44,747 nucleotides of DNA from Verrucomicrobiota bacterium (GTDB taxonomy: Bacteria; Verrucomicrobiota; Verrucomicrobiia; Chthoniobacterales; UBA10450). Position 1 is the stretch's first letter; each line of letters begins with the position of its first letter. Position numbers and translations under genes: made by a program. Under the pieces are notes generated by a model, which ran no database searches, was not told where the DNA came from, and saw only the letters and a list, made by a program, of their open reading frames with translations. Below are positions 2,555 through 33,951 of the stretch, in pieces. The DNA lies in NCBI GenBank assembly GCA_041167425.1, contig JBEEHO010000087.1, positions 1 through 44,747 on the forward strand, given 5' to 3'.

Positions 2555-3835
2555 ATGGGCTGGCTCGCCTTTTGCGGACTTATCGCGGTTGTGCTCGCGA
2601 GTGGATTTGCGGTTTGGCGCAAATGGGTCGCGCCCTGGAAAGATGTGGAAGAGTTAGCAGGCGACATTGTTGAACACCGTGCCCCGCGGAAATTTCTGAT
2701 CAGCGGCAATCCGCACGCACGGCGCGTGGGACTCGCGCTGGAAAAGCTGACCGATCGCCGGCGTGAGCTGGATGAAAGGATGCGCGAAAGCGAACTCAGC
2801 GTTCAGGCGGTCTTTGGCGCAATGCTCGATGGACTCGTGGTGGTGGATGGTCTGCGGCGCGTCCGGCTGGTCAATCTCGAATTCAGGCGCGTTTTCGGTC
2901 TCCGGGAAAATGCACCAGGGGAAACGCTTCTCGAAGTGATTCGACACGCTGCGGTCGATCGCATGGTGATGGAAGCGATCCGGACGGCCGAGCCCGGGCG
3001 GGAATCGATCAGGACGCCGCGCGACGGTACGGGCGAAAGCCGCGAAATGGAAGTGACCGCCGTGCCGCTGGGCGAGAATTCGGCGCAGATGGAAGGCGCC
3101 GTCGTGCTGTTCCGCGACGTTACCCAATTTCGGCAGGTGGAAGAAATACGACGCGATTTTGTGGCGAATGTTTCGCACGAACTCCGCACGCCGTTGTCGA
3201 TCTTCCGCGGATATCTCGAGACGTTGCTGGACGATCCACACCAGCCGCCGGCCGAATTGCTTCGCATTCTCGAAATCATGGAACGGCACTCGGACCGGTT
3301 GAACGCGCTCGTGGAAGACGTCCTCAGCCTGGCCCGACTCGAATCGCCGGGGATGGAACTCGATTTGGCCGAGGTCGATCTGGCCGAGTTGCTCCATTCG
3401 ATCATGCGCGACTGGGAAAAACGATTCGCGGCCCGGCAGCTCAAATCGCACCTCAATTTTCCGGGAAATCTGCCGGCGCTGCACGCGGACGAGAACCGTC
3501 TTCAGGAGGTTATTTATAATCTTCTCGATAACGCGGTGAAATATTCTCAACCGGGCGGGACGGTGTCTCTCCGCGCCGAGATGGTGGATGATCGCGTGCG
3601 CATCAGTGTGGCCGATCAAGGCATCGGGATTCGAGAGGCTGATCTGCCCCGCATCTTCGAGCGGTTTTATCGCGCAGATAAGGCGCGCAGCCGCGAATTT
3701 GGCGGGACCGGCCTGGGCCTTTCCATCGTCAAACATATTGTGCAACTGCATGGCGGCAGCGTCGAAGCCGAGAGCGAGCCGGGGAAAGGGACGACGATCA
3801 GTGTGTCGCTGCCTGTGAACCGAGAGGCTGACTAG
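2555..3835 (+). CDS. phoR: phosphate regulon sensor histidine kinase
   Basis: N-terminal TM segment, PAS-like segment, HisKA H-box (SHELRTPL) and HATPase_c (GGTGLGLSIVKH). The start is 7 nt after the phoB stop. Confidence 0.9.
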   Translation: MGWLAFCGLIAVVLASGFAVWRKWVAPWKDVEELAGDIVEHRAPRKFLISGNPHARRVGLALEKLTDRRRELDERMRESELSVQAVFGAMLDGLVVVDGLRRVRLVNLEFRRVFGLRENAPGETLLEVIRHAAVDRMVMEAIRTAEPGRESIRTPRDGTGESREMEVTAVPLGENSAQMEGAVVLFRDVTQFRQVEEIRRDFVANVSHELRTPLSIFRGYLETLLDDPHQPPAELLRILEIMERHSDRLNALVEDVLSLARLESPGMELDLAEVDLAELLHSIMRDWEKRFAARQLKSHLNFPGNLPALHADENRLQEVIYNLLDNAVKYSQPGGTVSLRAEMVDDRVRISVADQGIGIREADLPRIFERFYRADKARSREFGGTGLGLSIVKHIVQLHGGSVEAESEPGKGTTISVSLPVNREAD

Positions 3836-3837
3836 CT

Positions 3838-3997
3838 GTCATCCCGAGCCGCGCAGACGGCGAGGGACCTCACAGTTGGAATGCTGGTTTGCTTGCGCCT
3901 GCACCACGCCCATCCCAGTGGACGCTCAGCACTTCGCGGAAGCGGTCTCGTGAGCCTGCGTGAGGCACCTCGCCAGTCTTACGCGGCTCGGGATGAC
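3838..3997. repeat. family B palindromic element, copy 1
   Basis: Left arm GTCATCCCGAGCCGCGCAGACGGCGAGGGACCTCACAG (3838-3875). An imperfect inverted copy lies at 3958-3997. The same arms recur at 33754-33920. Confidence 0.75.
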
Positions 3998-11776: not shown

Positions 11777-11805
11777 GAATGGGAGAGAAAGAAAAACTAT
11801 CTCGT

Positions 11806-12618
11806 ATGAAAACATTACTCGTCACTCTCGTCACGGGCCTCCTTTTCGCCTCCACCTCAGCGCGTGCGGAACGCCTCGTCATCAAGGGATCGGACACGCT
11901 CGGCGCAAAGCTGGTCCCGCAATTGGCCGAGCAATTCAAAACACAGACCCCGGACGCCACCTTTGATATCGCCGCGGAAGGATCGACCACCGGTTTCGCG
12001 GCGCTGATCGATTCCACCGCGCAGATTGGCATGGCCAGCCGGCCGGCCAAGAGCGAAGAGATCGCCGCGGCGAAGGCGAAAGGCGTCGAGCTGAAAGAAA
12101 CCATCGTCGCGTATGACGGCGTGGCCGTCATTGTGAACGCGGCGAACCCGGTCAAGAACCTGACCAGGAAACAGGTGGAACAAATCTTCACCGGCGAAGT
12201 AAGCGATTGGAGCGCGGTGGGCGGATCGGGTGGCACGATTTCCATCTACACCCGCAACACTTCCTCCGGCACCTACTCGGAATTCAAGGAGCTCGCGATG
12301 AAGAAACGCGACTACGCCGCCTCCGCGCAAAAGATGGCGGGCAACGAGCAGATCGCGGCGGAAGTGGGAAAGAATGCGAACGGCGTCGGTTACGTCGGGC
12401 TCGCCTACACCAAGGCGAAAGGGATCAAAGTTGTCTCGATCGATGGCGCGCTGCCCTCAATCGAGAGCGTGCAGAAGAAAACCTATCCCTACGCGCGGCC
12501 GACTTTCTTTTACACAAATGGCGAACCGGCCGGCCTGGTAAAGGCATTCGTTGATTTCACCCTCAGCGCCACCGGTCAAAAAATTGTGGGCGATGTTGGG
12601 TTCGTTCCGATAAAATGA
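11806..12618 (+). CDS. pstS: phosphate ABC transporter substrate-binding protein (copy 1)
   Basis: Signal peptide [21 protein letters not shown], then IKGSDTLG…AAEGSTTG…TRNTSSGT motifs. The start is chosen by alignment with the paralog at 17829-18641. The track start at 11779 is possible. Confidence 0.9.
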
Positions 12619-12643: not shown

Positions 12644-13087
12644 GTGAAGTCGAACGTCCTTTTCATCTGTATTCATAACAGCGCCCGCAGCCAAATGGCG
12701 GAAGCGTGGCTCAATCACATTTGCGGCGATTTTTTCTCGGCGGAGAGCGCGGGCCTCGAGCCGGGCACGTTGAATCCTTTCGTCGTCCGGGCCATGCAGG
12801 AAATCGGGATCGATATTTCCCAAAAGAAAACACAGGCCGTCTTCGATGTCTTTAAGGCCGGAAAACTTTTCTCTCATGTGGTCACCGTTTGCGACGAGAC
12901 GAGCGCGGAGAAATGCCCGATCTTTCCCGGGATAACGAAGCGCTTGCATTGGAGCTTCGCCGATCCATCGGCGCTGACTGGAAACGATGAGGAAAAGATG
13001 GCGGGCGTACGGAAAATCAGGGAAGAAATCCGCGCAAAGGTCGAGGAGTGGTGCGAAGAAATCTGCCCGCACGGCACCGCGGCGTGA
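12644..13087 (+). CDS. arsC: arsenate reductase, thioredoxin-coupled LMW-PTPase family
   Basis: P-loop CIHNSARS (CX5R) plus the downstream Cys pair [14 protein letters not shown] start 26 nt after pstS. Confidence 0.8.
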
Positions 13088-13298
13088 GAAGGATTTAGTC
13101 GGTGCGCGAGGCGGCTCGGCTCTTCCGGTGGGAGAAAATCTTGGAGCGGCTTCGCGGAAATTCCGCAAGTGAGTTCCGATGTGCCCGAGGCGGTAGAGCG
13201 CGATCACCTCTTTCGAGCGCATCCGGGTACACCCGAAACTGGCCCGGCGTCCGATGCGTTGCTGCGCAACCAGATCACGCGCGAGACAATTGCATGAT

Positions 13299-13446
13299 CT
13301 GGGGAGCGCACGCGCCTCGCGTGCTGGCGACGGCGCCTCGCCGTCGCGAACTTGCAGGCGCTTGTCTGGAGAGCGGAGTGAGTGTTGCAGAAAGTTCGTT
13401 GCGGCGAGGCGCCGCAACCTGCACGCGAGGCGCGTGCGCTCCCCGG
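13299..13446. repeat. family A palindromic (MITE/REP-like) element, copy 1
   Basis: Terminal inverted repeats CTGGGGAGCGCACGCGCCTCGCGTGC … GCACGCGAGGCGCGTGCGCTCCCCGG. The same termini occur at 22188-22303 and 25467-25601. Confidence 0.8.
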
Positions 13447-13474
13447 AGTTCCAACGGGACACTTGAAAAAGAAA

Positions 13475-13828
13475 TCACGCCGTTCTGCGGTTGTTCTTTT
13501 CCGGAACCAGGAGTTTCAAATCCTCGATCAGCGAATCGATCTTGCGCAGATCTTTTCGCCGCCCTTTCTCCGGCTTCAATTTGCGCTTTCGCACGTGGAT
13601 CATCAGGTCCCGCAACTGATTCAAACGCTCGCGCGACAATTCTTCGGCGGGCTTCAGCGAGCCCAGTGCGGCACGGCTTTCGGCCAGATTAATTTCCAGG
13701 CGCGCCGCGTAAGCCCGCACCGTCGCGCGCAGATCCTGCCGAAGTTTTTCCAACTCCCTCTCCAGCACTTTCGCGGGTGACGTATTTTCGGCTGTTGTGC
13801 GGATCTTTTTATGTTTGCTCGATGTCAT
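13475..13828 (-). CDS. hypothetical highly charged coiled-coil protein (117 aa)
   Basis: Only the ATG-13828 portion of ORF 13475..14524 looks protein-like (MTSSKHKK…LERELEKLRQDLRATVRAYAARLEINLAE…). No domain recognised. Confidence 0.45.
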   Translation of the reverse strand: MTSSKHKKIRTTAENTSPAKVLERELEKLRQDLRATVRAYAARLEINLAESRAALGSLKPAEELSRERLNQLRDLMIHVRKRKLKPEKGRRKDLRKIDSLIEDLKLLVPEKNNRRTA

Positions 13829-13876
13829 AAGGCAGTTCCTGTCAGTTCCGGCGTTTCCGCCAGCGGCGTGTCCGAT

Positions 13877-13895
13877 GATTGAAATGGATTGAAAT
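13877..13895. promoter_or_regulatory. AT-rich tandem direct repeat, candidate operator
   Basis: GATTGAAAT g GATTGAAAT with a 10-bp period. It lies in the divergent region between the gene starts at 13828 (-) and 14033 (+). Confidence 0.25.
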
Positions 13896-14032
13896 TCAGC
13901 AACTCGATCTCGCTCTCGAGCGTCTCCATTGCCCCGCAAAAATAGCAGGCGCGACCAGGCGCCGACAAAGTGAGTTTTGTTACGTTCGTGTGGCGAAGAA
14001 AATGTTCTTGCGTTGGCTGCATCGTCCAGAGA

Positions 14033-14377
14033 ATGTCCCACGCAATGCAACGCCAGCTTATGCGGCATCTGGCTGCCCCGCTCATCCGCGGAGCGGTCGC
14101 TGGCTGGCTCTGCGCCGCACTCCTTTTGGCGCTCGCGCTCAGTGTCTCGCCGCGCTGGCACGACCTGATCCACCCCGACGCCAAGAGCGGGAAACACGAA
14201 TGCGCGGTGACGCTGGTTAGCTCCGGCAATGTCCAGCACTCGGCGCCCGCGCCTCTGGTAGTAGTTCCGGCGCCGGCTCTGCAATTTTCTTTCGTTCCGG
14301 CGCTGCACCCTGTCTGGGTCGCGTCGCCTTTCATCGGCGCTCGCATCTTTGAGCACGCGCCGCCGGCGCGCGCCTAG
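14033..14377 (+). CDS. small membrane protein with a His/Cys motif, upstream of the TonB-dependent receptor
   Basis: One TM segment (GAVAGWLCAALLLALALSV) followed by WHDLIHPDAKSGKHECAVTL. The start is uncertain (ATG 14033, 14045 or 14060; the track gives 13970). Confidence 0.5.
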   Translation: MSHAMQRQLMRHLAAPLIRGAVAGWLCAALLLALALSVSPRWHDLIHPDAKSGKHECAVTLVSSGNVQHSAPAPLVVVPAPALQFSFVPALHPVWVASPFIGARIFEHAPPARA

Positions 14378-14535
14378 GCACGGGCTCCAGCCGCGTTCTC
14401 GCGCGGAGTATCGGTTTTCGATTCGTCGCGCGACTTGCGGCACGGATTTCGTGCACGCTCCCCTACCCTTGCGGCCTCGCCTCGCGAACGCCGCAGCAAC
14501 CACACGCACAAAAATGAATTTCAAAAACTTTATCC

Positions 14536-17828: not shown

Positions 17829-18641
17829 CTACGGAATTGGAACGAAGCCGACCTGGCCGACGATCTTCTGGCCACCGCCGCTGATGGTGAAATCGAGGAA
17901 CTGTTTCGCGAGTCCGCTAGGATCGCCGTTGGTGTAATAAAACGTCGGACGGGCGTACGGGTACGTCTTCGCGTGCACCGTCTGCACGGAAGGCAAAACG
18001 CCGTCGATCGACATGACTTTGATGCCGCCGGCCTTCGTGTAAGCGAGACCGACGTAGCCGACGCCATTTGCATTTTTTCCCACTTCCGCGGCGATCTGTT
18101 CGTTGCCCGCCATTTTTTGCGAGCCGCCGGCGTAATCGCGCTTCTTCATCGCCAGCTCCTTGAAATCGGAGTAAGTGCCCGACGAAGTGTTACGGGTGTA
18201 AACGGAAATCTTTCCGCCGGAACCTCCGAGTGCACTCCAGTCAGCCACTTCGCCGGTGAAGATCTGCTCCACCTGCTTTTTGGTCAGGCTCTTGATCGGG
18301 TTCGCCGAATTCACGATCACGGCGATGCCGTCGTAGGCGACGATGGTTGGTTTCAGATGCACTCCCTTCGCCGTGGCGGTGCCGACTTCGGCGGACTTCG
18401 CGCGCCGGCTCGACATGCCGATCTGCGCCGTGCCGTCGAGGATCGCCGCGATGCCGGTGGTGGAACCTTCTGCCGCGATGTCGAAGGTGGTGCCGGGATG
18501 TTGGGCCTTAAATTGCTCGGCGAGCTGCGGCACGAGCTTGGCGCCGAGTGTGTCGGAGCCTTTGATGACCAATTTTTCGGCGCGAGCCTCAGTGGAGAGA
18601 AAGGCGAGCCCGAGCGTGAGAGCGAGATGGATGATTTTCAT
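17829..18641 (-). CDS. pstS: phosphate ABC transporter substrate-binding protein (copy 2)
   Basis: Signal peptide MKIIHLALTLGLAFLSTEARA. Collinear with copy 1; by eye roughly four-fifths of mature residues are identical. Confidence 0.9.
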   Translation of the reverse strand: MKIIHLALTLGLAFLSTEARAEKLVIKGSDTLGAKLVPQLAEQFKAQHPGTTFDIAAEGSTTGIAAILDGTAQIGMSSRRAKSAEVGTATAKGVHLKPTIVAYDGIAVIVNSANPIKSLTKKQVEQIFTGEVADWSALGGSGGKISVYTRNTSSGTYSDFKELAMKKRDYAGGSQKMAGNEQIAAEVGKNANGVGYVGLAYTKAGGIKVMSIDGVLPSVQTVHAKTYPYARPTFYYTNGDPSGLAKQFLDFTISGGGQKIVGQVGFVPIP

Positions 18642-18673
18642 ATGGTGAAGTGAGGTTGCGTATGCCTAACGAG

Positions 18674-20306: not shown

Positions 20307-20380
20307 TGTAGCCACGGCCCTCTGCGCCGTTCGGTGAACGCGACGGAAGAAGGGAGACGGCCCGCAGGGCCGTCGCTACA
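20307..20380. repeat. family C palindromic element, copy 1
   Basis: TGTAGCCACGGCCCT … GGCCCGCAGGGCCGTCGCTACA. The same termini occur at 34322-34398. A separate hairpin GGACGCGC-ggaa-GCGCGTCC follows at 20385-20404. Confidence 0.7.
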
Positions 20381-20459
20381 GCGCGGACGCGCGGAAGCGC
20401 GTCCGTCCGAGTTAACGCGCTTGGATATTCCGAAACGCTTTCCTAAGCTTCAAAACCTC

Positions 20460-22163
20460 GTGCATCCGAAAGAAGATTACGTCCTCAAGCTCCTCGAAGA
20501 TGCGGGGCTCGTGACCCGTTCGCAGATCGACCAGGCCCGATCGAAATTGAACGGAGCGACGAACCTCGTCGATGTGCTCGTGAAAGATGGGGTCGTTTCC
20601 GAGGCGGACGTTTCCCGCAGCCTCGCCGCCCAGGCCCACATGGATTGGGTCGATCTTTCGGCCAAGGTCATTCCGCCGGAAGTGATCAAACAAATCCGCG
20701 CGGAAGACGCGCGGCGATTCAAAGTCATTCCGGTCGGCTTCGGCGAGACGGGCTTGACCGTAGCGGTGAGCGATCCGCTCGATATCGATACGATCGACAG
20801 CCTGAGCTTCTTGTTGCAGCGCGAGATCGAGCTCGTCTGCGCCAGTCCGGAAAAAATCCGGCAGGCCTTGATCAAATATTATGGGACGGCCGACGAAGCT
20901 TCGGACGTCCTGGTCCAACAAATCGGACACGACGTGGATCTCGGGGTCGAGATCATGGAAGGCGGCGACCTCAGTGGAACGGATGAAGCGGACGCACCGA
21001 TCATCCGCATGGTTTCGATGCTGCTCATCGAAGCGCATCGGCTCGGCGCGAGCGATGTGCATCTCGAGCCGCTCGACAAAAAATTCCGCGTGCGCTTCCG
21101 GATCGACGGCGTCCTTCAGGAAATGCAGGCGCCACCGAAACGATTGCAATCCGCCATCGTCAGCCGGCTGAAAATCATGACCGGTTCGATGAGCATCGCG
21201 GAAAAGCGCCTGCCCCAGGACGGACGCATCCAGGTGAGAATCGCGCGGAAGCCGATCGACCTTCGCGTTTCCACGATCCCCACCAACCACGGCGAAAGCG
21301 TCGTCATGCGCGTCCTCGATAAATCGAGCCTGATGCTCGGTCTCCCCGAACTCGGATTTTTCAGCGACGACCAGGAAACCTTCGAGCGCTTGCTCCGCCT
21401 GCCGGATGGCATTCTCCTCGTGACCGGGCCGACCGGTTCCGGCAAGACGAGCACACTTTATTCGTGCCTCAATTTCATCAATAAACCCGACCGCAAGATC
21501 ATCACGGTCGAAGAGCCCATCGAGTATCAGATGAACGGCATCAACCAGGTGCAGGTGAATGCCGACGTCGGAATGACTTTTCCGGTCGCGCTGCGTTCCA
21601 TTTTGCGGCAGGCGCCCAACATCATCATGATCGGCGAAATTCGCGATATGGAGACGGCCACGATCGCCACCAACGCGAGCCTGACCGGGCATCTCGTCTT
21701 CAGCACGCTGCACACGAACGATGCGCCCTCGGCCGTGGCGCGCCTGGTCGATATCGGGGTGCAGCCGTTTCTGGTCGCTTCCTCCGTGCGGGCGATTATG
21801 GCGCAACGACTCGTTAGGCGTCTTTGCGCGAACTGCAAACAACCCGGGGAATTGAGCGAAACCGATCTGCGCGCTTTGAACCTGGACCCGTCCCAATTAA
21901 GCGAGGCACAGGTCATGAAGCCGGTCGGCTGCGAGCAATGCCGCAACACCGGTTACCGGGGACGGATGGGAATTTTCGAAATTTTCATCATCGACGATGA
22001 CGTGCGCCACATGATCAACAATCGCCGCTCCACTCTTCTCCTGCGCCAGCGCGCCCGCGAACTCGGCATGCGCACCTTGCGCGAGGACGGCGTGCGCAAG
22101 GTCCTCGCCGGGCTGACCTCGGCGGAGGAAGTGATTTCGATTACGCTCGGAGATGTGAACTAA
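20460..22163 (+). CDS. gspE: type II secretion / type IV pilus assembly ATPase (GspE/PilB family), copy 1
   Basis: T2SSE_N-like N-terminal domain, Walker A GPTGSGKTS, Asp/His boxes and a tetracysteine motif (CANC…CEQC). The start is uncertain (GTG 20460 or TTG 20421). The track start at 20334 would read through repeat C1. Confidence 0.85.
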   Translation: MHPKEDYVLKLLEDAGLVTRSQIDQARSKLNGATNLVDVLVKDGVVSEADVSRSLAAQAHMDWVDLSAKVIPPEVIKQIRAEDARRFKVIPVGFGETGLTVAVSDPLDIDTIDSLSFLLQREIELVCASPEKIRQALIKYYGTADEASDVLVQQIGHDVDLGVEIMEGGDLSGTDEADAPIIRMVSMLLIEAHRLGASDVHLEPLDKKFRVRFRIDGVLQEMQAPPKRLQSAIVSRLKIMTGSMSIAEKRLPQDGRIQVRIARKPIDLRVSTIPTNHGESVVMRVLDKSSLMLGLPELGFFSDDQETFERLLRLPDGILLVTGPTGSGKTSTLYSCLNFINKPDRKIITVEEPIEYQMNGINQVQVNADVGMTFPVALRSILRQAPNIIMIGEIRDMETATIATNASLTGHLVFSTLHTNDAPSAVARLVDIGVQPFLVASSVRAIMAQRLVRRLCANCKQPGELSETDLRALNLDPSQLSEAQVMKPVGCEQCRNTGYRGRMGIFEIFIIDDDVRHMINNRRSTLLLRQRARELGMRTLREDGVRKVLAGLTSAEEVISITLGDVN

Positions 22164-22187
22164 GGTATGGCGCCGACAAGATTCACT

Positions 22188-22303
22188 CTGGGGAGCGCAC
22201 GCGCCTCGCGTGCTGGTCTTGGCGCCTCGCCAAAACAATCTTCAGAAAAGTTCGCGATCGCGAGGGCGCAATCGCCAGCACGCGAGGCGCGTGCGCTCCC
22301 CAG
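22188..22303. repeat. family A palindromic element, copy 2
   Basis: CTGGGGAGCGCACGCGCCTCGCGTGCTGG … CCAGCACGCGAGGCGCGTGCGCTCCCCAG. It fills the gap between the two gspE genes and ends 9 nt before the second ATG. Confidence 0.85.
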
Positions 22304-22312
22304 AACCAGACC

Positions 22313-24001
22313 ATGAACGCGCAACAAATCGCCGACCTCTTCGTCGAGCAAAAAATCCTTCAGCCTTCGCAGGCAGACGACGTTTTGCAGGAGGCGAACC
22401 TCAACGGCAAGAACATCGAGCAGGCGTTGATCGACAGCGGCTTCGTGGATGAGCGCGGCTTTTATCAGGTCATCGCCGATGCGCTCGGAACCGATTTCGT
22501 CGAGCTGGGCGAAAAGGAAATCGCGCCCGAAATCCTGCGCCTCATTCCGGGAGGGCTCGCGCGGCTGCATCGGGCGCTGCCCGTCGCCGCAAGCGACAAC
22601 ACGATCAGGGTCGCGCTGGTCGATCCGCTGGATTTACGCGCCGCCGAGGATTTGCGCTTCGCGCTGGGGAAAGACGTGCACGTCGTCGTCGCTCCGATGG
22701 AACAGGTCGAAGAGCGGATCAAACGTTATTACGGGACCGACAGCTCGAGCATGGAGGACATCCTCAAGCAGCTCGGCGAAACGGGCGAGCTGCTGGCCTT
22801 GCGCGGGAAAGACGAAAGCACGCTCGCGGGGGAGGCCGAAGCGAACGCCACGCCGATCATTCGCTTTGTCGATTTGATTTTGTTCCAGGCGATCCAGGAC
22901 CGCGCGAGCGACATCCACTTCGAGCCGTTCGAAAACGAATTCAAGATTCGTTATCGCGTGGACGGCGCGCTTTACGAAATGGCGCCACCACCGCGTCATC
23001 TCGCGCTCCCCGTGATTTCGCGCGTCAAGGTAATGGCGAACATGAACATCGCGGAGCGCCGCCTTCCCCAGGATGGGCGCATCCAGAAAAATATCGCGGG
23101 TCGCACCGTCGATCTGCGCGTGTCGACTTTGCCCACCCAGTTCGGCGAGAGCGTGGTCCTCCGTGTTCTCGACCGTTCGACCGTGAACCTCGACCTCGAT
23201 TCTCTCGGCCTCCCCGATTATATCCGCGATTACATCATCGAAATCATCAATCGCCCGAACGGCATTTTCATTGTCACCGGGCCGACCGGCTCGGGAAAAA
23301 CGACGACGCTCTATTCGTGCCTGAGAAAAATTAACACCATCGATTCGAAACTGTTGACGGCGGAAGAACCGGTCGAATACGACCTCGAAGGGATCGTGCA
23401 GGTGCCGGTGAACGAAGCGATCGGCCTCACTTTTGCGCGGGCGCTCCGCGCTTTTTTGCGGCAGGACCCGGACCGCATCATGGTCGGCGAAACGCGCGAC
23501 CTGGAGACGGCGCAAATTTCCATCCAGGCATCGCTGACCGGGCACCTCGTTTTTACCACGCTGCATACGAACGACGCGCCGGGCGCGATCACGCGCCTGA
23601 TCGACATGGGCGTGGAGCCCTTTCTCATTTCCTCCACGCTCGAAGCGGTGCTGGGCCAGCGTTTGCTCCGCAGCATCTGCCCGCAATGCCGCACCACTTA
23701 TCAGCCGAGTGACACGCTGCTCTCGCAGCTCGGCCTGGCGCGGCGCGACATCGGCGAAAAGAATTTTTATTACGGCAAAGGCTGCGACGCGTGCAACCAA
23801 ACCGGCTACAAAGGCCGGAAGGGCATCTACGAATTGATGAAGATAACCGATCCGCTGCGCGAATTAATCAACGAGCGCGCGCCCAGCGTGGTGCTCAAGG
23901 AAAAAGCGATCGAGCTCGGCATGGTGAGCTTGCGGCAGGACGGCCTGCGCAGCATTTTCGCCGGCGACACCACGATCGAGGAGGTGCTCAAATACACCTG
24001 A
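22313..24001 (+). CDS. gspE: type II secretion / type IV pilus assembly ATPase (GspE/PilB family), copy 2
   Basis: Same architecture as copy 1: Walker A GPTGSGKTT and tetracysteine CPQC…CDAC. Confidence 0.9.
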   Translation: MNAQQIADLFVEQKILQPSQADDVLQEANLNGKNIEQALIDSGFVDERGFYQVIADALGTDFVELGEKEIAPEILRLIPGGLARLHRALPVAASDNTIRVALVDPLDLRAAEDLRFALGKDVHVVVAPMEQVEERIKRYYGTDSSSMEDILKQLGETGELLALRGKDESTLAGEAEANATPIIRFVDLILFQAIQDRASDIHFEPFENEFKIRYRVDGALYEMAPPPRHLALPVISRVKVMANMNIAERRLPQDGRIQKNIAGRTVDLRVSTLPTQFGESVVLRVLDRSTVNLDLDSLGLPDYIRDYIIEIINRPNGIFIVTGPTGSGKTTTLYSCLRKINTIDSKLLTAEEPVEYDLEGIVQVPVNEAIGLTFARALRAFLRQDPDRIMVGETRDLETAQISIQASLTGHLVFTTLHTNDAPGAITRLIDMGVEPFLISSTLEAVLGQRLLRSICPQCRTTYQPSDTLLSQLGLARRDIGEKNFYYGKGCDACNQTGYKGRKGIYELMKITDPLRELINERAPSVVLKEKAIELGMVSLRQDGLRSIFAGDTTIEEVLKYT

Positions 24002-24004
24002 GAA

Positions 24005-24140
24005 AAAGCTCCGAATTCTAAGCTCCAAGCATCAGAGAAATTCCAATCATCAAGCTCCAAACAACGCGAAAGAGGTTGCGATTAGTTTTATTAAAGTTTG
24101 GCGCTTCATTGGAGCTTGGATGTTGGAATTTGGAGCTTTA
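24005..24140. repeat. family D imperfect inverted repeat built from AAGCTCCAA units
   Basis: The left arm (24005-24062) holds AAGCTCCGA, AAGCTCCAA and AAGCTCCAA. The right arm (24097-24140) holds TTGGAGCTT twice. The centre is AT-rich. Confidence 0.6.
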
Positions 24141-24151
24141 GCGTAGCGCTC

Positions 24152-25441
24152 ATGCCGCGTTACACTTACGTTGCGCTCGATGCGCGCGGCCAGGAATCCA
24201 CTGGCCTGGTCGACGCTTCTTCGACTAACGAAGCGATCGGTCAGCTCCGGCAGGCGGGTTATTTCCCCACCAACGTTTACGAAGAAGGCAAGGGCGGGGG
24301 CGCGGATGGAAAAGCGGCGCGGCGCGCGTCCAAACCTGCGCGCGCGGAACGGGTGGCGGGCAGCAAGAACATCGTCCTCTTCCAGCGCAAATCGGTTAAG
24401 CCGAAAATACTGATGATTTTCACGCGGCAGCTTGCGACGTTGATCGACGCGGGGCTTCCTCTTCTCCGCTCTCTCAACGTCCTCGCGAAACAGGAACGCG
24501 ACTCCGTGCTAAAAAACACCATCAACAAGCTGGCCGATTCAGTGCAGGGCGGCAGCACTTTCTCCGAAGGCCTCGCGCAGCACCCGCGTTTGTTCAATGA
24601 TCTCTACGTCAACATGGTGCGCGCCGGCGAGCTTGGCGGCGTGCTCGAGCTGGTCCTGACCCGGCTGGCGGAATTCCAGGAGAAAGCGCAGAAGGTCAAA
24701 AATAAAGTCGTCGCGGCGATGGTCTATCCCATCATCGTGCTCTTGCTCGCCCTGGTGATCATGACCTTTCTCATGATCTTCATCGTCCCGAAATTCGAAA
24801 CGATTTTTCACGACATGCTGGGCGACAAACCACTTCCCGTCATTACGGTTTTCGTTATTGGGGTAAGCGATTTCATGCAGAACCACTGGGCCATCCTGCT
24901 CGGATTGTTGGTCGGCGCCATCGCCGGATATAAATTTGCCGCCCGCACCAGGGCCGGTCGCGCGGTGCTCGACCGGATCAAGCTGCGCGCGCCGCTGTTC
25001 GGCGACCTCATTCGCAAAACTTCGATCTCGCGCTTTTCGCGCACGCTCGGGACGCTGGTCACAAGCGGGGTGCCGATTTTGCAGGCGCTCAATATCACGC
25101 GCGAAACCGCGGGCAATACGGTCATCGCGCGGGCGATCTCGCAAGTGCACGACAGTGTGAAGGAAGGCGAATCGATCGTGCTGCCGTTGGAAGCGAGCGG
25201 GGCGTTTCCGCCCATGGTGGTCAGCATGATCGACGTGGGCGAAGAGACGGGGCAATTGCCCGAGATGCTTTTGAAGATCGCGGAAGTTTATGACGACGAA
25301 GTCGACAACTCCGTGGCTGCGCTCACGTCTTTACTCGAGCCGATCATGATTGTTTTGCTGGCGCTGATCGTCGGCACGATTGTCATCGCGCTTTTCATGC
25401 CGCTCATCGGCATCATCAGCGGGTTGCAGCAGCAGACGTGA
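24152..25441 (+). CDS. gspF: type II secretion system F / PilC platform protein
   Basis: Two T2SSF repeats and three TM segments. ATG 24152 (MPRYTYVALDARGQ…) is preferred, because the track start at 24098 lies inside repeat D. Confidence 0.9.
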   Translation: MPRYTYVALDARGQESTGLVDASSTNEAIGQLRQAGYFPTNVYEEGKGGGADGKAARRASKPARAERVAGSKNIVLFQRKSVKPKILMIFTRQLATLIDAGLPLLRSLNVLAKQERDSVLKNTINKLADSVQGGSTFSEGLAQHPRLFNDLYVNMVRAGELGGVLELVLTRLAEFQEKAQKVKNKVVAAMVYPIIVLLLALVIMTFLMIFIVPKFETIFHDMLGDKPLPVITVFVIGVSDFMQNHWAILLGLLVGAIAGYKFAARTRAGRAVLDRIKLRAPLFGDLIRKTSISRFSRTLGTLVTSGVPILQALNITRETAGNTVIARAISQVHDSVKEGESIVLPLEASGAFPPMVVSMIDVGEETGQLPEMLLKIAEVYDDEVDNSVAALTSLLEPIMIVLLALIVGTIVIALFMPLIGIISGLQQQT

Positions 25442-26151
25442 CCGTGAGACGCGTGTCCGCTGAAATCCGGGGAGCGCACGCGCCGCGCGCGCGGGCGAGG
25501 CGCCCCGCCGAGCGAACTTTTTCCGCAATCGCGCACCGTTCGGCGCAGGACGGTTTCGGCGAGGCGCCGAAACCAGCACGCGAGGCGCGTGCGCTCCCCG
25601 GACCGGCACGCCACGCGTTCACGATTATCGAATTGCTCATCGTCATCGCGATCATCCTCGTGCTCGCGGGACTGATCCTGGCCACGTCCGGCTACGTTCA
25701 GACGAAAGGCAAACGCTCGCGCGCGGAAGCGGAGATCGCCGCGATCTCCGCCGCGCTGGAGAATTACAAGGCGGATAATGGAGTGTATCCGAGCGGCATG
25801 GAAAGCAACGCGTTAAAGCCAAACACGATGGGTGATCCGACCCAATCGGCTTATAAAGATGCAAGTCTTTCGCTCTACAGAACCATCAGCGGAGATGCCG
25901 ACAACGACGCAAATCGCCTCGCCGAAGGAAAGTCCTATTTTAATTTCAAACCCAATCAACTCTATCCCACCGCACAGAATCAATCCGTAACCTTCATCAG
26001 AGATCCATTTGGAAATTCGTACGGCTATTCAACCGTTAAAGCGTCTGCGCCCGGCGGATCCGATGGCTACAATCCAACCTTTGATTTGTGGAGTACCGTC
26101 GGGACCATTACTAATCCGCCAAACCAATCGCAGTGGATCAAGAATTGGTGA
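25438..26151 (+). CDS. prepilin-type (GspG/pseudopilin-like) protein with an unusually long leader
   Basis: N-terminal methylation/cleavage motif AFTIIELLIVIAIILVLAGL at about 25615. The only in-frame start codons are GTGs at 25438, 25444 and 25453, all upstream of repeat A3. Confidence 0.7.
   Translation: MTVRRVSAEIRGAHAPRARARRPAERTFSAIAHRSAQDGFGEAPKPAREARALPGPARHAFTIIELLIVIAIILVLAGLILATSGYVQTKGKRSRAEAEIAAISAALENYKADNGVYPSGMESNALKPNTMGDPTQSAYKDASLSLYRTISGDADNDANRLAEGKSYFNFKPNQLYPTAQNQSVTFIRDPFGNSYGYSTVKASAPGGSDGYNPTFDLWSTVGTITNPPNQSQWIKNW
25467..25601. repeat. family A palindromic element, copy 3 (inside the pseudopilin leader ORF)
   Basis: CCGGGGAGCGCACGCGCC … GCACGCGAGGCGCGTGCGCTCCCCGG. 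It is 135 bp (45 codons) with no stop in the pseudopilin frame. Confidence 0.8.
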
Positions 26152-33076: not shown

Positions 33077-33745
33077 ATGAAGGAGAAAACAGAGCGCGAG
33101 AAGACGCTGACGATTAATGAGATCTATCACTCGATCCAGGGTGAGAGCACCTGGGCGGGAGAGCCGTGCGTTTTTGTGCGCCTCACTTTTTGCGATCTGC
33201 GTTGCACTTATTGCGATACGGAATACGCGTTTTACGAGGGGAAAAAACAGACGCTCGACGAGATCGTGACGGCGGTGGCGGCGTTGCAATGCCCGCTCGT
33301 CGAGATCACCGGCGGCGAACCGCTTCTGCAGAAAAATGTGCTGCCTCTCATGACGATGCTCGCGGATGCGGGCCAGACGGTTTTGCTCGAGACAAGCGGC
33401 GCGCACGATATTTCGTCAGTCGATCCGCGCGTGCATCGGATCATGGATTTGAAGACACCGGGAAGTGGTGAAAGCGCGCGCAATCTTTTCTCGAACATCG
33501 AGCATCTCACCCAGCGTGATGAAGTGAAGTTCGTCATCGGCTCGCGCGAAGATTACGAATGGTCGCGGGACCAGGTTGAGCGCCAGGCGCTGGCGCAACG
33601 TTGCCGCGCGGCGCTGTTTTCGCCGATCTTTGGAAGAATCGATCCGCGCGAGATCGTGGAGTGGATCCTGGCGGACAGGCTGCCGGTCCGCTTCCAGTTG
33701 CAGATGCACAAGTTCATCTGGACGCCAACGAAGCGGGGCGTGTAG
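33077..33745 (+). CDS. queE: 7-carboxy-7-deazaguanine synthase (radical SAM)
   Basis: …IYHSIQGES…, a CxxxCxxC cluster (CDLRCTYCDTEY) and the length match QueE. Confidence 0.9.
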   Translation: MKEKTEREKTLTINEIYHSIQGESTWAGEPCVFVRLTFCDLRCTYCDTEYAFYEGKKQTLDEIVTAVAALQCPLVEITGGEPLLQKNVLPLMTMLADAGQTVLLETSGAHDISSVDPRVHRIMDLKTPGSGESARNLFSNIEHLTQRDEVKFVIGSREDYEWSRDQVERQALAQRCRAALFSPIFGRIDPREIVEWILADRLPVRFQLQMHKFIWTPTKRGV

Positions 33746-33753
33746 CGGCGCGT

Positions 33754-33920
33754 GTCATCCGGAGCCGCGCAGACGGCGAGGGACCTCACAGTCGCTCCAG
33801 GGTTACACTGAAAAAAGTCGACAGATTCGACAGTTGCAGCTTCGTGGAACGCGAGAGCGGATCAGGGTGCTTTGGTTTGCGACTGTGAGGTCCCTCGCCG
33901 TCTGCGCGGCTCGGGATGAC
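33754..33920. repeat. family B palindromic element, copy 2
   Basis: GTCATCCGGAGCCGCGCAGACGGCGAGGGACCTCACAG (left) and CTGTGAGGTCCCTCGCCGTCTGCGCGGCTCGGGATGAC (right, ending at 33920). It lies between queE and queD. Confidence 0.8.
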
Positions 33921-33951
33921 ACGCGTGAAGAGCAATGCGAGCTTGGCCGCA

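Follow-up and report, generated by a model that had tools for sequence, protein, structure and literature searches.

We analysed a 44,747-nt stretch of DNA from a Verrucomicrobiota bacterium (assembly GCA_041167425.1, contig JBEEHO010000087.1; hereafter the window), in which a 135-nt palindromic repeat, named here family A, lies inside the gene for a GspG/PulG-like major (pseudo)pilin precursor. Our analyses make it likely that this non-autonomous repeat is tolerated as an in-frame insertion in the leader of the gspG-like gene and is translated with it. Translation through the element is supported by comparison of related sequences; its coupling to the upstream gspF gene and the processing of the product by prepilin peptidase are predictions. 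The case rests on a three-frame comparison across ~150 related loci, which indicates that leader insertion is a clade-wide habit and not a one-off. The sample consisted of 169 related loci, each extending up to ~4 kb either side of the pilin gene, together with the 44.7-kb window (~830 kb in total). Among the matches listed by a metagenome scan, most were 50-65% relatives; close orthologues were retrieved individually. The gspF stop and the F(+1) codon were placed in each locus by tblastn, independently of gene calls.

The host gene (25438-26151, + strand) is the sole long open reading frame (ORF) in its frame, with 237 codons counted from a GTG at 25438, a leader of residues 1-60 and a mature part from F61 to W237. 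Its product passes the gathering cutoffs of the Pfam profiles T2SSG (27.7 bits vs 21) and N_methyl (24.5 vs 21.2, residues 58-80) and the cutoff of TIGR02532 (22.3 vs 16.3), and scores below that of the GspG equivalog TIGR01710 (44.4 vs 88.85). The AlphaFold model, built with 35 homologues, has a mean predicted local distance difference test (pLDDT) score of 71, with 80-95 in the mature part, where a long alpha1 helix (63-114) is followed by a folded head. The top eight Foldseek matches in the PDB are EpsG/GspG (probability 0.99-1.00; target-normalised TM-score 0.49-0.60, best 0.56-0.60). Homologues run into the thousands, and the named ones are all from soil Verrucomicrobiota (Chthoniobacterales, including metagenome-assembled genomes of Candidatus Udaeobacter). 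Scans of the window, and of the window plus the 169 loci, found no further class III signal proteins.

The class III signal-peptide cleavage motif A(-1)/F(+1)TIIE(+5)LL is located at 25615-25638 on the + strand (Pfam N_methyl; sequence ...ARHA/FTIIELLIVIAIILVLAGLILA, the slash in peptide sequences marking the cleavage point). The 35 homologues show little or no variation at F61, T62 and E65. A hydrophilic leader, F(+1), E(+5) and a hydrophobic stretch are all present, as in other class III signals, except that residue -1 is Ala instead of Gly. Ala is also found at -1 in most orthologues of the clade (A/FT[IL][IV]ELL; loci L001-L160), and Gly in some. The leader of the window gene is basic (13 K+R vs 5 D+E), and its residues 1-48 are modelled with pLDDT below 50 and without secondary structure. 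As modelled, this basic, disordered leader would fit a cytoplasmic, positive-inside, disposable segment. Tryptic peptides derived from the leader include TFSAIAHR and SAQDGFGEAPKPAR. A protein-database search with the 46-residue element peptide gave a single match, to one 56-residue ORF.

The element occupies 25467-25601 (no strand assigned) and encodes leader residues R11-G55. The first-pass annotation had reported a 135-bp palindromic element in frame within a pseudopilin leader, with no ATG, GTG or TTG between it and the cleavage motif, and the Pfam matches and codon reading confirm both statements. The only in-frame ATG, GTG or TTG codons upstream of F(+1) are three GTGs at 25438, 25444 and 25453 (25438-25455, + strand), all of them before the element, the first sharing a GTGA with the gspF stop. 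Five codons (GGA CCG GCA CGC CAC) separate the element from A(-1), and none of them is ATG, GTG, TTG, CTG or ATH. This bears on a rival reading in which translation starts downstream of the element, or inside it at a non-canonical codon such as the in-frame ATC in its centre, so that the element would be an untranslated, intercistronic repetitive extragenic palindrome (REP). REPs at annotated N-termini usually do lie upstream of the true start, and in Pseudomonas, Citrobacter and Stenotrophomonas a REP at a predicted N-terminus is often outside the gene, with the true start downstream (PMC3733652). The hairpin could also hinder initiation upstream of it. The missing start codons past the element speak against this reading, as do the clade-wide data given below.

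Two 18-nt terminal inverted repeats, identified by a repeat scan of the window, bound the element: CCGGGGAGCGCACGCGCC on the left (25467-25484, + strand) and its counterpart on the right (25584-25601, - strand); their complementarity is 90% when they are extended to 30 nt. Allowing up to one mismatch, CCGGGGAGCGCACGCGCC has six matches in the window against 0.28 expected, a count reached in 0 of 100 shuffles. These matches are the two ends of each of three family A copies. Besides the copy inside the pseudopilin ORF (25466-25602, 135-137 nt), there is a 118-nt copy between two GspE/PilB ATPase paralogues (22187-22304) and a 150-nt copy (13298-13447) between a low-molecular-weight phosphatase gene (12644-13087) and an ORF on the - strand (13475-14524). 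Both of these further copies, which likewise carry no strand assignment, are intergenic with co-directional or convergent neighbours, and the ORFs that span the one at 13298-13447 have no Pfam match. The arms are common to all three copies, and the centre and length vary. Each arm consists of its own small G+C-rich hairpin (GCACGCG-CCT-CGCGTGC) and a second inner palindrome, and the two arms are inverted around the variable centre. In the 830 kb sampled we counted 25 paired family A copies, with total lengths of 113-170 bp.

Several features are those of a MITE (miniature inverted-repeat transposable element), namely terminal inverted repeats, small size, multiple copies and no transposase ORF. 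The element is also an inverted pair of short imperfect palindromes able to form one long hairpin, as in REPs and REP doublets forming hairpins (REPINs). Subfamilies in other genomes alter both arms together, and the REP stem is kept by compensatory variants (GCACGCG/CGCGTGC, GCACGCTG/CAGCGTGC and GCAGGCTG/CAGCCTGC). No direct repeat that would mark a target-site duplication flanks the three window copies (ATGA/TC..GA/GTTC, TCAC/TC..GA/ACCA and GAAA/TC..GA/CCGG), and no GTAG or CGTC tag is conserved at the arm ends of the aligned copies. Rfam gave no family match to the element, only far-sub-threshold plant miRNA hairpins, and a promoter and terminator scan of it found no sigma-70-like promoter and no intrinsic terminator. 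By sequence anatomy the element appears closest to REPINs and less like a classical MITE. A tolerated MITE-like leader insertion, one of three options in the first-pass annotation, is favoured by the comparative data, with the element more REPIN-like than MITE-like.

The distance from the gspF stop to F(+1) ranges from 11 to 217 nt across the loci, with a median of 122. In short-spacer orthologues (11-23 nt; L148, L010, L040, L047 and L155) the sole possible initiator is the GTG of a GTGA at the gspF stop, and the leaders are short and basic, for example VTRRA/FT in L148, VSKRANA/FT in L010, VNKRQSA/FT in L040 and VIERRQRA/FT in L047. These orthologues indicate that a GTG overlapping the gspF stop is the ancestral start arrangement, which is kept in the window. 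The element is found at the same position in five distinct loci (L161, L162, L164, L166 and L167; L165 is identical in sequence to L164), the mature regions of which are 59-78% identical to that of the window. Whole-spacer indels among the carriers are limited to one of 3 nt and one of 6 nt, and all their spacers are 2 mod 3. Upstream of the element, the carriers have in common the leader residues V-K/R-x-V-A/S-A-E-I/F, and the second GTG is kept in all six aligned carriers (window included).

One relative at 77% identity (L163/P0029) is without the element core, keeps the frame and has a 17-residue leader, VKGKRVAAELWGAALHA/FTLIELL. It is a real counterpart of MTVRRVSAEI-R-GPARHAFTIIELL, the product that the first-pass annotation had derived by conceptual excision and taken for a normal short leader. 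L163 retains TCTGGGGA of the left repeat, and in L062 CCCGGGCAGCGCACGCG is fused directly to TTC. Because 8-15 nt of the left repeat remain, we read both loci as in-frame secondary deletions and not as never-occupied sites. One possible route is deletion between two CACGCG sequences, one in the left repeat and the other directly preceding TTC.

Two further relatives of the window deserve description. In the spacer of L169 (3949-4021; P0011; 80% identity) there is a different short hairpin, GGAACATAG...CTATGTTCC, and the frame is open from a GTG just past the gspF stop, although the gene caller picked a proximal ATG. The window and L162 (4001-4738; P0013) are near-identical from the end of gspF through the leader to mature residue ~57, with a third-position divergence of 0.05; the C-terminal pilin domain is strongly diverged, giving 59% identity overall. 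This pattern looks like a mosaic or recombinant variable domain.

We profiled stop codons in all three frames of the 153 distinct gspF-gspG spacers, of which 125 (~80%) are at least 60 nt long and 28 (~18%) are shorter than 60 nt. An untranslated spacer would be expected to carry stops equally in all frames. Among the 125 long spacers, the pilin frame is stop-free in 101, and the other frames in 13 and 12. The total number of stops is 30 in the pilin frame vs 227 and 212. When each sequence-similarity cluster is counted once, 22.7 of 27 are stop-free in the pilin frame vs 7.3 and 7.3 in the others. The bias persists upstream of the nearest canonical start (29 stops vs 101 and 87), suggesting that initiation in many loci takes place close to the gspF stop rather than at the start nearest the pilin. 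In 66% of the 153 spacers, F(+1) and the nearest canonical start are separated by more than 45 nt, and in 52% by more than 75 nt. Together, these comparisons indicate that the spacer, including its palindromes, is read as part of the prepilin.

The lengths of the element are informative in the same way. The 45-codon element of the window is stop-free in the pilin frame, as had been noted from the start. This is true and is weak evidence alone, because the element is G+C-rich and stops are absent from 16 of the 18 frames in which the three window copies can be read; the informative property is a length that keeps the upstream start in frame. Family A copies in leaders measure 113, 116, 122, 131, 146, 152, 164 and 167 nt from GGGG to CCCC, and with the four terminal bases added the length is a multiple of 3 in 15 of 16 copies within mapped spacers, and also in L168, where the gspF end lies off the contig. 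Copies elsewhere have mixed lengths (112, 112, 113, 113, 122, 144, 156, 164 and 167 nt). The lone leader exception is in L027 (2820-3003; 133+4 nt), where the conserved N-terminus, VKSMAAKIW, and the pilin are in different frames and there is no canonical start. L027 is either a frameshifted gene or the product of an assembly indel.

Multiple-of-3 lengths are unexpected in untranslated DNA. A start downstream of or inside the element is also difficult to reconcile with the depletion of pilin-frame stops over the entire spacer in ~125 loci, even upstream of the nearest canonical start, and with the distance of that start from F(+1) in half of the spacers. We therefore consider non-canonical initiation, the third option of the first-pass annotation, improbable. 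The usual default for REPs at N-termini, a true start further downstream, appears not to apply to these sequences. The same two properties bear on the idea that ribosomes bypass the hairpin, as in phage T4 gene 60, from a GGA on its left (25471-25473) to a GGA on its right (25600-25602), leaving the element untranslated. These matching in-frame codons do flank the hairpin, yet such a pair is a trivial outcome of an inverted repeat, and no stop codon follows the take-off site. Bypassing needs neither a stop-free frame nor a multiple-of-3 length, and both are conserved, which leaves it with a negligible probability.

We then compared variable sites by codon position in the six aligned carriers (window included). 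The element has 9, 14 and 9 variable sites at codon positions 1, 2 and 3, as opposed to 11, 4 and 37 in the first 45 mature codons and 7, 1 and 21 in the last 36 gspF codons. With no codon-position bias, the 45 residues are not conserved as protein. Conservation of these residues at the protein level had been named beforehand as the observation that would overturn the insertion reading, and the counts are the opposite of it. The arms of the element diverge by 2-10%, the centre by 12-40% and the flanking third positions by 27-53% (the window/L162 pair excluded). What is conserved is therefore the palindrome as DNA or RNA. The transposition machinery, homogenisation with other copies or a function of the hairpin could account for this.

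Divergence in the flanking gspF and mature gspG regions is 0.07 at codon positions 1 and 2 vs 0.375 at position 3, and this purifying selection on the mature part argues against a pseudogene. Inactivation by the insertion, which would make the gene a pseudogene or a silent copy, had been the second option. Both the unprecedented length of the leader and the very strong hairpin that directly follows the start would be in keeping with it, and the related locus L027 looks frameshifted. However, the 237-codon ORF is intact, variable sites in the mature part are concentrated at third positions, the insertion is kept in frame in five other distinct lineages, and this is the only pilin gene beside gspE-gspE-gspF in the window. 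We consider inactivation very improbable.

Of the 125 long spacers, only 15 contain a family A element. Another leader repeat family encodes MTNDE.../...IRHSSF and donates its own ATG, others encode CRGVRRGERLTN...RRYN and VEAAVSAA...TPAAT, and a further family is AT-rich; the remaining spacers include assorted unclassified sequences. The MTNDE family is found in L001, L004, L005, L030, L037 and many other loci, upstream of locus position ~3001. Its in-frame ATG is sometimes downstream of an in-frame stop, so that the element provides the start codon. Matches elsewhere in the 830 kb sampled (at least 30 nt at 80% identity or more) were found for 64 of the 125 long spacers, and 72% of the long spacers fold far better than shuffles. 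If the shortest possible start is assumed, the median leader in long-spacer loci is 29 residues, and 89% of these leaders are net positive. These sequences indicate that the leader is repeatedly colonised by at least five repeat families across Chthoniobacterales. The occupant differs among close relatives of the window (L001, L169 and L163), suggesting that turnover is ongoing.

The RNA of the element alone is predicted to form a hairpin of -98.5 kcal/mol, within a whole-element range of -91 to -127 kcal/mol. The segment 25438-25640 folds at -125 kcal/mol (z = -6.7 vs shuffles), and in this predicted fold the GTG region (25438-25455) pairs with 25603-25623, the codons just before the cleavage site (e.g., ACGCGTG/CACGCGT). 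With the GTGs buried in the predicted stem, initiation may depend on ribosomes arriving from gspF.

The fold also raises the possibility that the element is kept for a function at the RNA level, such as coupling to gspF, throttling or timing of synthesis, or differential mRNA stability, with translation as a side condition. This account shares translation of the element with the tolerated-insertion reading, from which it departs only in the reason for the element's persistence. Apart from the pairing of the start-codon region with the pre-cleavage codons, it is favoured by the lower divergence of the arms than of the flanking synonymous-type sites, by the prevalence of long spacers and the large share of them that fold strongly, and by the compensatory stem variants between subfamilies. 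However, arm conservation is equally expected from homogenisation or re-seeding by an active repeat family, or from the transposition machinery. Unrelated families, some of them AT-rich, are found at the same site, and the spacers shorter than 60 nt have no room for such an element. Among close relatives the element has been lost (L163) or another hairpin is present (L169), and neither a promoter-like or terminator-like site nor an Rfam match was found in the element. On balance, we regard RNA-level maintenance as a possible but minority explanation.

A bolder proposal is more doubtful still. Selection might have maintained the leader over a long time as a docking site for REPIN-like hairpins throughout Chthoniobacterales, with the translated hairpin co-opted to gate pseudopilin synthesis. 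If so, gating could act via translational coupling to gspF, elongation throttling or an RNase-processing site, and repeat-encoded leaders of 30-65 residues would be a regulated feature of the filament system and not neutral baggage.

Returning to the translated, tolerated leader insertion, we propose the following sequence of events. Translation would start, probably by re-initiation coupled to the end of gspF translation, at the ancestral GTG (25438 or 25444) that overlaps or adjoins the gspF stop, and the ribosome would unwind the hairpin and read straight through the 135-bp element. The resulting precursor, with a basic, disordered leader of 55-60 residues, would then insert in the membrane. 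In described systems the hydrophobic alpha1N segment is inserted by the signal recognition particle (SRP)/Sec pathway, the leader is cytoplasmic by the positive-inside rule, and cleavage after residue -1 takes place on the cytoplasmic face (PMC4471445). Here, too, the leader would remain cytoplasmic and prepilin peptidase would cut after A(-1), freeing mature F61-W237 for assembly. Because the leader is removed by the peptidase, the extra 45 residues would never be part of the mature pseudopilin. With the leader disposable, an insertion would be tolerated while the frame is kept and stop-free.

Some observations weigh against this proposal. Described prepilin leaders have 6-26 residues, or about 30 in type IVb prepilins, and end in Gly (PMC4471445). 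The predicted leader of 55-60 residues in the window would be two to three times longer than any of them, and it has Ala at -1 where Gly is canonical. Inspection by eye of the sequence upstream of the GTGs reveals no Shine-Dalgarno-like motif. The very stable hairpin and the buried starts could stand in the way of initiation or elongation, or make the mRNA a target of RNase III. The search for an orthologous empty site with a short leader, suggested with the first-pass annotation, yielded the core-less L163, and no naive empty site was found among the loci. In addition, the loci are not phylogenetically independent, and a single insertion, or a small number of them, at one site probably gave rise to many of the family A leader copies, so there are fewer events than loci.

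The pseudopilin gene closes a gspE-gspE-gspF-gspG-like gene order and is the sole pilin gene adjoining this trio in the window. Two tandem GspE/PilB-type ATPase paralogues (20334-22163 and 22313-24001) are directly upstream of the gspF/pilC-like gene for the platform protein (24098-25441, + strand; Pfam T2SSF 215 bits, TIGR02120 417 bits), which ends in a TGA at 25439-25441. The pseudopilin gene is followed by a convergent gene of the OmpA family. A full type II secretion system also includes GspC, GspD and GspH-M; no gene for a secretin or a minor pseudopilin was seen adjoining the pseudopilin gene, the rest of the window being only partly annotated. A family A copy at the same gspE-gspE junction is also present in L161 and L162.

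Other repeats were detected in the window. A second palindromic family, TGTCATCC[CG]GAGCCGCGCAGACGGCGAGGGACCTCACAG, is present at 3837-3881, 33749-33795 and 33879-33925. The first of these arms directly follows the stop of a histidine-kinase ORF (2555-3835). The other two form a 47-nt inverted pair with 98% complementarity, directly after a radical-SAM ORF (33077-33745). An 807-nt inverted repeat with 74% complementarity comprises 11805-12611 and 17836-18642; its first arm corresponds to a gene for a periplasmic binding protein (PBP_like_2, 11779-12618), and its second overlaps an ORF on the opposite strand (17829-18641).

In-frame palindromic repeats are established in bacteria, as Rickettsia palindromic elements (RPEs), intragenic REPs (found also in the verrucomicrobium Opitutus terrae), ERIC sequences and Coxiella QMITEs (PMC10969869, PMC3733652, PMC5896051). 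In the literature we found no report of repeats in pilin leaders, of leaders this long, or of repeats in Udaeobacter or Chthoniobacterales. In-frame palindromes being already known, what is new here is the location in a cleaved class III signal leader. If confirmed, class III leaders tolerate more than 6-30 residues, including 45 or more of arbitrary repeat-encoded sequence, which would bear on substrate recognition by prepilin peptidases and SRP. The locus would also be a clean natural case of selfish palindromic DNA surviving in a gene, hidden in a part of the protein that is discarded. For genome annotation, N-terminal REPs are habitually treated as mis-called starts, and the long start seems correct for this clade. 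Because the arms are more conserved than synonymous sites, the hairpin may possibly regulate pseudopilin output.

Several known systems resemble parts of this arrangement. Mitochondrial coding palindromes of Nematomorpha (PMC6649704) are likewise long, near-perfect inverted repeats in translated ORFs, but they are organellar, lie within mature proteins and belong to an unrelated biology. Bacterial MITEs can create in-frame fusions (ERIC, Correia and Coxiella QMITE; PMC5896051, PMC10969869). They, too, lack a transposase, have terminal inverted repeats, are present in multiple copies, form strong hairpins and encode basic peptides, whereas for family A neither a target-site duplication at the three window copies nor a parent IS was recognised, and the site is a signal leader and not the protein body or C-terminus. 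REPINs, which RAYT transposases mobilise (PMC3116915, PMC2817692), share with family A the inverted hairpin arms, which are conserved while the centres vary, the subfamilies with compensatory stem changes, the intergenic location of other copies and the lack of a visible target-site duplication. Unlike them, family A has no GTAG/CGTC tag, no RAYT gene was identified, though none was sought genome-wide, and the leader copy is genic and would be translated.

On the protein side, there is a parallel with type IVb prepilins (TcpA, BfpA and CofA/LngA; leaders 15-30 residues; PMC4471445), which also have a hydrophilic cytoplasmic leader longer than 5-10 residues that is removed by the peptidase. The leaders considered here would be longer, at 55-60 residues in the window and up to ~65 in relatives if started at the gspF stop. 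The proteins are GspG-like, with a type IVa-like N-terminus and Ala at -1, and their repeat-derived length is not conserved as protein. On the repeat side, there is a functional parallel with the RPEs (Ogata et al. 2000, via PMC10969869 and PMC3733652), palindromes of ~100-150 bp in frame in protein genes; N-terminal RPE-1-decorated proteins are expressed in Rickettsia (PMC3733652, PMC10969869). The likeness is one of function, and we do not class family A as an RPE. Family A, presumably unrelated in sequence, is G+C-rich and its host is a free-living soil Verrucomicrobiota bacterium; moreover, its insertion is in a segment that would be proteolytically removed, and the site is reused by several families across an order. 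In Rickettsia the palindrome is translated as an extra peptide and tolerated because it is sited where function is undisturbed, and we infer that the same holds for the pseudopilin leader.

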